Part shown: in pieces, positions 233 to 1,584 of the stretch
How positions within the stretch are numbered: position 1 is the stretch's first letter
Layout: the number at the start of each line of letters is the position of its first letter
IMG/VR virus record: IMGVR_UViG_2778261540_000003
Direction: 5' to 3' (one strand)
Length of the DNA: 64,000 bases
Source of the DNA: a virus
Lineage: Duplodnaviria; Heunggongvirae; Uroviricota; Caudoviricetes
Notes under the pieces: generated by a model
The model's database searches: none
What the model saw: only the letters and a program-made list of their open reading frames with translations
What the model was told of the DNA's origin: nothing
Made by a program: the position numbers and the translations under genes

Positions 233-698
233 CAGGGTTTTCGTCATGGTTAGCGACTTTGCGGCGGTTTAGAAACTGACCATTAAAGTAAATGCAAACG
301 ATGATCTGATGATGGTAGCGGCCTAAGAAACCAGATGCCACGGGGTATGAGTCGTCCCCCGTCAAAAAAATCGACCGCAGAGTGTCCCCGTCTGTGTATT
401 AGGGAACGGGGAGGCACAACAGGTAAGGGCGCTGGTGTGATTAACCAGATGAACGAGAAGGGGCCATCTGTTGGTCAGCGTCCTTTCCTGTTGCGTTTTC
501 TTTTCAGCGTAACAGCGGTGCTTAACAGCACTTTGGGTACAGTTCCACGAATTTACGGGTATATCCCGTCATGCTGAAGGCGCTAATCACGCTGGAAGCC
601 AGGGTTGTGCATCCCCTGTTACCGAATTGCAGCCAGGGCGCGGTGCGCCGAAAAGCATACGGAGGTGGAAGCCCTCGCCGGAGACGTACCCGGCAAGT

Positions 699-774
699 GA
701 TGGTGTAGCTCAGCGGTTAGAGCGGTTGACTGTTAATCAACGGGTCGATGGTTCAAATCCATCCACCATCGCCA
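699..774 (+). tRNA. tRNA-Asn (anticodon GTT)
   Basis: Cloverleaf reconstructed by hand: 7-bp acceptor gatggtg/caccatc, D-arm gctcagcggttagagc, anticodon loop ctGTTaa, T-loop ggttcaaatcc, encoded CCA. Confidence 0.85.
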
Positions 775-776
775 AT

Positions 777-852
777 GCCGGTTTAGCTCAGTTGGTAGAG
801 CGCCTGCCTTGTAAGCAGGATGTCAGCGGTTCGAGTCCGTTAATCGGCACCA
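777..852 (+). tRNA. tRNA-Thr (anticodon TGT)
   Basis: Acceptor gccggtt/aatcggc, D-arm gctcagttggtagagc, anticodon stem cctgc/gcagg with loop ctTGTaa, T-loop ggttcgagtcc, encoded CCA. Confidence 0.85.
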
Positions 853-860
853 GCACAACA

Positions 861-934
861 GGTAAGGGTATTTTGCGACGTCGGAGATCGCCGAGCTTGG
901 CAGAGGGTTCGAATCCCTACGAAGTACCCTTACC
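861..934 (+). ncRNA. tRNA-like structured element (canonical T-loop, 10-bp terminal stem, non-canonical core)
   Basis: ggtaagggta ... tacccttacc closing stem around gggttcgaatccc; 74 nt long but D-arm and anticodon arm cannot be folded canonically; no encoded CCA. Confidence 0.25.
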
Positions 935-1584
935 GTTGTGATGAAGTGCAGCTCTTTGAAGCAACCAGAAGATAAGCATCTGGCTTCACAACATAAACCG
1001 CAGGAACGACCAATAAACGGTAGTCCGTATGGAGAACACCCCGTTGAGGAAGAGGCCTGGCCGGAACCGTAACCGGCACTACAACGTTGAGAACACTGGC
1101 GTAACGGGGTCATATCCCAATCTACGAATAAATGTTGCGTTGCAGCGTGACAACCAGTGTTCTCAACATTGTGGTGAATGCACAGGCTGATGTGCCGCAA
1201 CTACAGTAGTGCGCGCTTTGCGGGGCTTGCTACAACCCTGTGTCGGAGTTCAGCACCGACCATCACAGTTTGATTCTCTGGCATGAGCATAACGCTGAAA
1301 TAAGTCCAGCCTGGTGCGGCCCGATCACCCGCCGTTAGCTCCACGAAACGGAGCACGTAACAGGTAAGAGCATTCTCCTGTAACGGGTTCATATCCCAAT
1401 CTACAGGTCCACCAAGAATGCTCTTTCCGTTGCGGTGAATGCGGCTAAGCGCACGCGGGGAAATGGTTATATCAGTCCATTCATTTCTCCTTGTTTCCCC
1501 GTCCACGGTGGATAACCAGCCAAAGGACACCGGGAGGCACCCGGCACCGCAGCTTTTTTATTCGTTAAATAATGGAGTGAGAGG

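Follow-up and report, generated by a model that had tools for sequence, protein, structure and literature searches.

Conserved-arm RNA hairpins with unrelated interiors in the ban-operon leader of a P1-type phage, and their possible role in RNA processing

The window analysed here is a stretch of 64,000 nucleotides of a P1-type phage (IMG/VR record IMGVR_UViG_2778261540_000003), and this study concerns a set of repeats that lie among the tRNA genes near its beginning. It was found that the repeats are the arms and the contents of four long hairpins on the + strand, designated A (413-497), B (854-940), C (1077-1176) and D (1356-1434). They are members of a family in which the arms are conserved and the interiors are unrelated. 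The hairpins may well be RNase III-type processing hairpins in a polycistronic array of tRNAs and small RNAs (sRNAs), a reading that we hold with middling confidence. Positions 1-3000 of the window are 100% identical to the P1-type phage MH422554, and the hairpin region is about 99% identical to reference P1. The features of the window were transferred from the annotation of NC_005856 at 99% identity. Since this transfer places the promoters upstream and the start of ban at 3013, the hairpins sit in the leader of the C1-repressed ban operon (1-3012, about 3 kb), on the transcribed strand.

The first-pass annotation had described a family of elements with a 5' box in three copies and a core in two, each core followed by a further box and enclosed by its own inverted repeat. 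All three copies of the 5' box AACAGGTAAGRG were recovered, at 418-429, 857-868 and 1359-1370 on the + strand (0 expected in 100 shuffles); with flanks included, the first two extend to identical copies of GCACAACAGGTAAGGG at 414-429 and 853-868. Both copies of the core GTAACGGGKTCATATCCCAATCTAC were found as well, at 1101-1125 and 1380-1404, again with 0 expected in shuffles. The box after the core, GGTGAATGC, does occur twice (1173-1181 and 1434-1442); this 9-mer alone is not significant, with 0.76 copies expected and two or more copies in 15 of 100 shuffles, and it is part of a longer 24-nt repeat (1158-1181 and 1419-1442). The inverted repeats around the cores are present, at 1077-1099/1154-1176 (23 nt, 91% complementary) and 1363-1376/1415-1428 (14 nt, 93% complementary), but they are not specific to those units, being the conserved arms of the family. 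A third inverted repeat, which had been missed, lies at 861-873/922-934, and the first 5' box has a partner arm at about 480-495. There are therefore four hairpins rather than three boxes and two cores. The division into parts had to be redrawn: the 5' box is not separate from the inverted repeats but forms the 5' arm of the A, B and D stems; the core is not a unit of its own but an interior shared by only two of the four hairpins, C and D; and GGTGAATGC is no part of the unit but the first sequence after C and D, where a downstream RNA module starts.

Folding of each unit, a check proposed with the first-pass annotation, showed that all four hairpins are more stable than shuffled sequences on the + strand (z = -5.3 to -6.6), with weaker values on the - strand (z = -3.7 to -5.1). 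They were also scored with R1, a covariance model built from 42 diverse stems. Hairpin A, which lies directly 3' of a module resembling the tag region of transfer-messenger RNA (tmRNA), has a minimum free energy (MFE) of -40.4 kcal/mol (z = -5.3) and an R1 score of 31.7 bits on the + strand and 19.8 on the - strand; its arms are GGCACAACAGGTAAGGGCGCTG (5') and CAGCGTCCTTTCCTGTTGCG (3'), without the bulged A, around an interior of 41 nt. The helix of hairpin B (MFE -41.6 kcal/mol, z = -5.3; R1 51.7 bits +, 20.0 -) starts 1 nt past the CCA end of tRNA-Thr. Its stem is CACAAC-A-GGTAAGGGTATTT / AAGTACCCTTACC-GTTGTG, and a T-arm motif scan found a canonical T-arm, GAGGG TTCGAAT CCCTA, in its interior at about 904-920. 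Hairpin C (inverted repeat I1; MFE -49.2 kcal/mol, z = -6.6; R1 32.7 bits +, no match on -) has the non-bulged arm variant ACAACGTTGAGAACACTGG / CCAGTGTTCTCAACATTGT and contains the first core copy; this GUUGAG variant is also present in P7, in phage-plasmid CMS-2020a and in several viral contigs. The second core copy lies inside hairpin D (MFE -35.4 kcal/mol, z = -6.4; R1 53.3 bits +, 13.7 -), with the arms CGTAAC-A-GGTAAGAGCATTCT / AGAATGCTCTTTCC-GTTGCG. The bulged A is present in B and D, while the extra A of hairpin A pairs with an extra U; a central U.U mismatch is found in A and D, where B has a U-A pair. Helices of 19-23 positions are predicted, interrupted by a single bulge and/or a single mismatch, and would amount to about 20 bp of near-continuous double-stranded RNA (dsRNA). 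Hairpins A, C and D each come after small hairpins, and all four lie on the strand of the tRNAs and ban. R1 finds exactly four matches in the 64-kb window, hairpins A-D and nothing else; the training alignment contained A-D, so that their scores are partly obtained by construction.

The core has a fold of its own (+ strand; 1099-1128 in C and 1378-1409 in D) that consists of a 4-5-bp stem, AC, a 3-bp stem with a 7-nt loop, and AAUC. Between hairpin A and tRNA-Asn, the sequence ACGGGTATATCCCGT at 556-570 (+) resembles the core of C and D (ACGGGKTCATATCCC) and may be a third, degenerate copy. Two other identities were tried and rejected: tRNA pseudogenes in the case of C and D, as the 7-nt loops do not fit a T-loop, and put-like antitermination RNAs, as the hairpins come after terminators and not before them.

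The elements had been held to be non-coding and structured, to lie on the tRNA strand and to share one operon leader, all of which is borne out by folding and by the tRNA and annotation scans. They are indeed not clustered regularly interspaced short palindromic repeats (CRISPR), for the repeats are inverted arms and the direct copies are irregularly spaced, 279-502 nt apart. Nor are they canonical tRNAs: ARAGORN and Rfam RF00005 give no match on the hairpins, and hairpin B has a T-arm but no cloverleaf. The only tRNAs that these tools found near the hairpins, all on the + strand, are tRNA-Asn(GTT) at 699-774 and tRNA-Thr(TGT) at 777-852, with Rfam tRNA scores of 74.5 and 72.9 bits, and tRNA-Ile2(CAT) at 2657-2732, which the NC_005856 transfer also gives. 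That A-D might be small stable RNAs or processing elements, as had been suggested, is an interpretation of the sequence.

The arms of the family can be written as ACAAC(A)GGTAAGAGCATTG / CAGTGCTCTTTCCGTTGTG with a bulged A and a central U.U, or in full as the consensus 5'-(C)ACAAC-A-GG-U-AAGAGCAUUG - interior - CAGUGCUCUU-U-CC-GUUGU(G)-3'. A member is defined by a stem of about 19 positions with arms near CACAAC(A)GGUAAGAGCAUUG / CAGUGCUCUUUCCGUUGUG, and hairpins A-D all have such a stem. In the alignment of 42 sequences, 85% of the cells pair, including ten non-bulged variants that are one column out of register. The covariation of the stem exceeds that of all 500 shuffles and of all shifted registers, and the structure is kept with compensatory changes in many phages. 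The central U.U is retained in 37 of the 42 members, and 28 of 42 have a U.G wobble; read from the opposite strand, it would give an A.C mismatch. With R1, the + strand scores 12-40 bits above the - strand (hairpin C has no - match). Like the wobble, this points to RNA of the sense strand. At the 14 distal arm positions left free by the search pattern, members are 77% identical to each other.

An arm-based pattern search of IMG/VR retrieved at least 120 viral contigs, a lower bound, with 94 distinct hairpins among the matches listed. Exact oriented patterns and the covariance model replaced an initial census by fuzzy regular expressions, the counts of which are unreliable because a near-palindrome matches both strands. 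In many loci R1 picks up extra, more divergent copies. When one genome per species was searched for paired consensus arms, almost all matches fell in about 25 species of Enterobacterales, with host genera that include Escherichia, Klebsiella, Enterobacter, Kluyvera, Pantoea, Erwinia, Pectobacterium, Serratia, Brenneria and Mixta. Two matches fell elsewhere: in an unclassified metagenome-assembled genome, and on a short scaffold assigned to the alphaproteobacterium Martelella alba that may stem from contamination. Two groups were filtered out of this genome-wide scan: about 35 matches due to chance, the distal arms of which do not pair, and 20 matches identical to lambda. The latter come from 20 assemblies of unrelated taxa, among them Psychrobacter, Bradyrhizobium, Enterococcus and Kitasatospora, in which the lambda hairpin is accompanied by its lambda flanks and lies for the most part on short contigs (loci L135, L136, L144, L150, L152, L156, L157, L160, L161, L172, L173, L180, L191, L192, L196, L200, L201, L206, L210 and others), and are most likely the result of contamination of the assemblies with lambda DNA.

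Phage lambda itself carries a perfect consensus member at J02459 44788-44862, beginning 8 nt past the tR' (6S RNA) terminator. It was not among the training rows of R1 and scores 60.5 bits on the + strand against 27.6 on the - strand. HK620 has two members in its late leader. One conserved 41-nt variant is found exactly in 628 of 5426 complete E. coli genomes, and no RefSeq annotation lies beneath this 41-mer in those genomes; a search of the late regions of DLP12 and Qin in E. coli K-12 found no family member. In P7, D6, RCS47, Ro157c2YLVW, SJ46 and CMS-2020a a like hairpin directly follows tRNA-Thr and tRNA-Ser, with a different interior; the alignment with P7 that had been proposed thus recovered the same type of hairpin after the tRNA but not the same interior. 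A covariance scan with Rfam had likewise been proposed. It found the tRNAs, but no family was assigned to the hairpins in the window and 15 related loci at either gathering or permissive thresholds of Rfam 15; the remaining output was a sub-threshold match to STnc100 beyond D and spurious microRNA matches on the hairpins. Full-text literature searches for the arms, for the GCGCAGGCTGATGCGC box and for the tag peptides described below returned nothing relevant. The family, the contrast between arms and interiors, the tandem use with tRNAs in P1 and the re-reading of the genes plp and upl given below thus appear to be undescribed in the literature and databases searched, while RNase III hairpins in phage leaders are a kind of element already known.

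The placement of the hairpins was compared across the family, and the counts in this paragraph are all among the matches listed. Where a hairpin and a tRNA lie within 300 nt of each other, they are always on the same strand (84:0), and the nearest long open reading frames (ORFs) are co-oriented with the hairpin in 117 of 149 cases (117:32). The family is not specific to tRNAs, as 79 of 120 instances have none within 300 nt. Twenty-six pattern matches start 2-3 nt past the CCA end of tRNA-Thr, and in four cases the final GTG of the stem provides nucleotides 1-3 of a downstream tRNA. The 74 distinct upstream contexts comprise 17 terminator-like hairpins with a T-run, seven tRNAs and 27 other stable small hairpins; a structured end thus precedes 51 of the 74 (Mann-Whitney p = 1e-10 against random 33-mers). 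Downstream, 41 of 67 distinct contexts begin with GTG-RTGAA, as they do after C and D of P1.

A role in punctuating the transcript is suggested by the two turns or so of dsRNA with a mismatch, the fixed sense orientation, the placement between a 3' end and a 5' end, and the tRNA-like slot that the hairpins occupy in arrays; from these features we infer the cleavage itself and RNase III as its enzyme. In the proposed scheme, the C1-controlled promoters P1ban and P2ban would drive the whole array as one precursor RNA. This would contain, in order, a dicF-like sRNA, the tag module, A, a spacer module, tRNA-Asn, tRNA-Thr, B, a module, C, a module, D, an STnc100-like RNA, two small genes, tRNA-Ile2(CAT), a structured module and ban. 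Each hairpin would offer about 19-23 bp of dsRNA, or about two helical turns, with the conserved bulged A and the central U.U mismatch, directly 3' of a structured RNA end (CCA, terminator or small GC hairpin) and directly 5' of the next module. Host RNase III would cut inside the stem and part the neighbouring RNAs, exonucleases would then trim the upstream RNA to its CCA end or terminal hairpin, and the cut would set a defined 5' end on the downstream RNA. In lambda, the hairpin is the only long helix of the late leader, and RNase III processing in that leader is said to have been reported by Daniels et al. (1988, Virology 167:568; reference 49 of PMC7547250). The hairpin at 44788-44862 may be the mapped site, being the sole long helix there.

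Several points weigh against processing by RNase III. The equation of the lambda RNase III sites with 44788-44862 is tentative and draws on the presence of a single candidate helix. The 84 hairpin-tRNA pairs are not independent events, since many related P1-like contigs were counted, and the conservation of the arms is partly built in, as the sample was gathered with an arm-based pattern. RNase III has little sequence specificity and so does not account for 77% identity in the arms together with interiors that resemble shuffled sequence; nor does it explain interior types that are conserved and structured, some with canonical T-arms. Because arms and interiors are left unexplained in this way, there is room for roles besides cleavage, such as cargo display, insulation or recombination linking. 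Furthermore, knock-down by CRISPR interference at plp and upl, two genes annotated across the hairpins, did not affect P1 plaque formation (PMC10695390), and any role is therefore dispensable in the laboratory.

The interiors bear on the first alternative, which can be entertained tentatively. The stem would be a generic stalk, cut or not, and the variable interiors of 30-75 nt would be functional as decoys, tRNA mimics or loop-loop antisense RNAs like P1 c4 that diversify under conflict between phages or between phage and host. The interiors are 29-56 nt long in the sample, and up to about 75 nt in P7. Overall they resemble shuffled sequence (52.6% identity against 50.9%), yet they fall into 41 recurring clusters in 90 hairpins, and a canonical T-arm is present in 14 of 115 where 0.2 are expected, hairpin B of P1 included (both counts among the matches listed). 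The core shared by C and D has compensatory changes at four of its eight pairs (RNAalifold, six variants), such as CGUA/UACG to CGUG/CACG and GGG/CCC to GGC/GCC. Hairpin B of P1 and that of P7 have identical arms and flanks and differ in the interior alone. All of this counts in favour of displayed cargo. On the other hand, complementary targets of the four P1 interiors within the 64-kb window are of chance length (9-11 nt, against 9-13 nt in shuffled sequence), no RNA family of Rfam matches any interior, and the loops of processing hairpins can vary and recombine freely without having a function. By analogy with the scaffold of primary microRNAs, it is conceivable, though doubtful, that the conserved stem is a universal RNase III "processing stalk" of enterobacterial phages that releases or displays a hypervariable cargo of 30-75 nt. 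The cargoes, of at least 41 types and some with a T-arm, might then be swapped as cassettes and act as decoys or specificity determinants in conflict, an idea to be taken with the same caution. The ban leader could, just as speculatively, be an array of such cargoes together with tRNAs, a DicF-like sRNA, an STnc100-like sRNA and an orphan tmRNA-tag module.

Rather more doubtful is the view that the hairpins are passive insulators or stabilisers. They would remain uncut, allow their neighbours to fold independently and, like REP elements, block 3'-5' exonucleases or scanning by RNase E. The great stability of the stems (-35 to -49 kcal/mol) and their position between independently folding units, directly after 3' structures, are in keeping with this. 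However, an uncut 20-bp helix 1 nt past the CCA would hinder the 3' maturation of tRNA-Thr, and where the last 3 nt of the stem are also the first 3 of a tRNA the helix must open or be removed. A stabiliser, moreover, needs neither a conserved bulge nor a central mismatch.

It is unlikely, although compatible with a role as RNA, that the arms serve at the DNA level as recombination linkers, that is, as patches of homology at module boundaries for the exchange of tRNA, sRNA and moron cassettes among lambdoid and P1-like phages. Among P1, P7, D6, RCS47, Ro157c2YLVW, SJ46 and CMS-2020a, hairpins and neighbouring modules have been gained, lost and swapped as units, a modularity that also counts in favour of the proposed punctuation of the transcript. 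The content of the cassettes varies between close relatives of P1 with breakpoints at hairpins, and interior types combine with different flanks and vice versa. SJ46 and viral contig L116 have a C/D hybrid hairpin, as would arise if the two core repeats recombined and 1126-1379 were lost. In lambda, the copy falls within a zone downstream of pR' that is known for moron insertions (PMC4104026). Patches of homology, however, need no inverted repeat, strand-specific U.G pair or bulge, covariation or fixed orientation to transcription.

A protein-coding origin of the region, in which the repeats would be coding sequence or chance, is very improbable. NC_005856 and RCS47 annotate the genes plp and upl on the minus strand, in reference P1 across hairpins B, C and D, and the frames are open in the window, with 125 aa (Plp, 823-1200) and 109 aa. 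In relatives, however, the frames are broken or truncated in five of seven, wherever the lengths of interiors or modules differ: tblastn showed plp split over frames -1, -2 and -3 or truncated in RCS47, Ro157c2YLVW, P7 and CMS-2020a and lacking its N-terminus in SJ46, and the 109-aa ORF similarly fragmented. In tblastn, Plp further aligns with its own locus read from the opposite strand, an artefact of a translated palindrome, and neither Plp nor Upl matches a Pfam family. The copy in the window begins with TTG, and its ORF extends 30 nt antisense into tRNA-Thr. The annotations of P7 and D6 include neither gene, and among the matches listed only four of 89 family hairpins lie within an ORF of at least 120 aa. 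The hairpins thus do not fall in a protein gene conserved among relatives, and plp and upl are probably spurious.

Scarcely credible is a MITE-like (miniature inverted-repeat transposable element) or REP-like element with 19-bp terminal inverted repeats, or an attC-like site of integrons: imperfect inverted repeats with variable centres in many copies in mobile DNA, and an outer ..AAC / GTT.. with an extrahelical base that recalls the R''/R' boxes of attC, are outweighed by the lack of a target-site duplication (the CAC/GTG flanks are inverted and part of the helix), by copies that are not near-identical and have unrelated interiors, by the 84:0 orientation to tRNAs noted above, by GCACAAC and GTTGTGG each being one position off RYYYAAC/GTTRRRY in a comparison that covered these sequence boxes, and by strand-specific G.U pairs and co-orientation with transcription, which point to RNA.

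The processing hairpins proposed here are flanked by other structured elements of the leader, all on the + strand. The leader opens with the C1 operator Op72 and the P1ban/P2ban promoters (1-45, listed at 16-45; inverted repeat I3), followed by a dicF-like region at 140-241, both transferred from NC_005856. Taken as 140-232, the latter closes with the only strong intrinsic terminator of the leader, a stem at 203-225 with a run of seven Ts; everything beyond it, including ban, can therefore be expressed only through read-through or antitermination. The spacer module from B to C (941-1076) starts with ATGAAGTGCAGCTCTTTGAAGC and ends in the small hairpin GGCCGGAACCGTAACCGGCAC, motifs that recur beside hairpins in many viral contigs, and 927-992 is 95% identical to Klebsiella phage-plasmids. 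The module from C to D (1177-1355) starts with GTGAATGCACAGGCTGATGTGC and ends in the small hairpin GCTCCACGAAACGGAGC followed by AC, and this closing hairpin recurs upstream of other family hairpins. It is opened by the first copy of GGTGAATGC (1173) and has only its first hairpin in common with the STnc100-like element (1431-1551), which begins with the second copy. The latter element aligns to positions 31-147 of 206 in Rfam RF02076 with 37.8 bits (E = 5.4e-6), below the gathering score of 47. The stem that closes it, UGCGGUG...CACCGCA, shares 4 nt with the end of hairpin D, and a T-run comes after it at 1553-1558. The prophage sRNA family STnc100, a relative of PasD, is found close to stx and to further morons, and Stx phages express it (bioRxiv 10.64898/2026.05.13.724894; PMC12370729).

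Small GC-rich hairpins of the form CCGG(R)-N6-8-(Y)CCGG, with CAC coming next, end each module directly before a tRNA or a family hairpin. By sequence motif they are located at 677-694, 1056-1076, 1336-1355, 1529-1546 and 2902-2922, and the 3' end of STnc100 has the same motif. They may be protective 3' hairpins of processed RNAs. The slot of tciA-tciB-tciC in the leader of reference P1 is taken here, at 1585-2629, by a membrane-like ORF of 78 aa and a lipoprotein gene of the SPFH/Band_7 type (1802-2629; Pfam Band_7, E = 1e-30), a cassette swap between the STnc100-like element and tRNA-Ile2. Between tRNA-Ile2 and ban, a conserved non-coding module at 2733-2925 (GGCACATGCGTCGTTAGCGGTC ... GGTAGCCGGAATGTGCAAGCC ... 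GGTGTGACAGCCGGGAAGAGTCCGGCGC) has no match in Rfam; stretches of phiV10, TL-2011b and Stx2c phages that carry no annotation match it at 80-88%. A homologue in viral contig L013 has compensating changes in its terminal hairpin, and a family hairpin and a tRNA-Arg come next.

The tmRNA-tag-like module upstream of hairpin A (236-412) ends in a 3' hairpin at 386-411 that abuts A. Its tag frame at 294-326 reads GCA AAC GAT GAT CTG ATG ATG GTA GCG GCC TAA and encodes ANDDLMMVAA*, compared with ANDENYALAA* for the ssrA tag of E. coli. As in tmRNA, there is a GCA resume codon, and the tag ends in AA with the stop codon inside a hairpin loop, like that of tmRNA helix 5; the module forms three covarying helices. 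A blastn search returned 267 phage records, 53 of them with at least 80% coverage, from Ackermannviridae, N4-like Schitoviridae, Drexlerviridae, HK620, P1 and the P1 relative SJ46. All eight aligned phages have a frame of ten codons and TAA (ANDDVVLMAA, ANDNEFKVAA, ANEEMYLAVA, ANDNTFLAVA and others), with synonymous changes that include the last Ala codons. ARAGORN finds no tRNA-like domain in the module, and Rfam tmRNA_permuted, in alignments that delete the acceptor part of the model, reaches 20-33 bits, where the gathering score is 47. No mention of the tag peptides was found in the full-text search. The module is possibly an orphan message domain of a tmRNA and perhaps of greater novelty than the hairpins. 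In a 70-kb viral contig (locus L050, 9203-9861), a tag module and two family hairpins accompany a cluster of six tRNAs, one of which has a CUA anticodon, would read amber and is called "tRNA-Pyl" by ARAGORN.

These results correct the annotation of P1, where structured RNAs are densely packed in the 3-kb ban leader and plp and upl are probably not genes. A large RNA family, beyond Rfam and RefSeq annotation, ties together P1, lambda, HK620, Stx-type prophages and phage-plasmids. It offers a model for the maturation of phage tRNAs and sRNAs out of long leaders and could account for the modularity of the moron zone downstream of pR'. The combination of conserved arms with hypervariable interiors is unusual and could point to a system of small-RNA cassettes.

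Among known systems, the lambda late leader has a hairpin with the same arms, bulge and U.U as those of P1, and there, too, the hairpin comes at once after a structured 3' end (tR') within a long leader; in lambda the copy is single and no tRNAs accompany it, whereas P1 has four in tandem among tRNAs and sRNA-like modules. The RNase III sites of T7 early genes (R1.1 and others) and the stalks of rRNA precursors place, as is proposed for P1, about two turns of dsRNA with a central internal loop or mismatch between functional RNAs of one polycistronic precursor, and a stalk can enclose a cargo. The T7 sites are, however, unrelated in sequence and have no hypervariable interior, while the rRNA stalks are built from distant flanks, unlike the P1 hairpins. 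T4 species 1 and 2 and the P1 c4 antisense RNA are small structured RNAs that are co-transcribed or processed like tRNAs in phage operons; no similarity to the hairpins in sequence or model was detected, and Rfam finds neither C4 nor another family at the hairpin positions. The likeness to STnc100/PasD is limited to the element after D, including GGUGAAU and CACCGGGAGGCACCCGGCACC, and is partial and sub-threshold; the hairpins themselves do not match. REP and ERIC elements are also transcribed, imperfect intergenic palindromes in many copies, but these are similar throughout, occur in both orientations and are chromosomal, whereas the hairpins described here conserve their arms only, keep a fixed orientation and are carried by phages.

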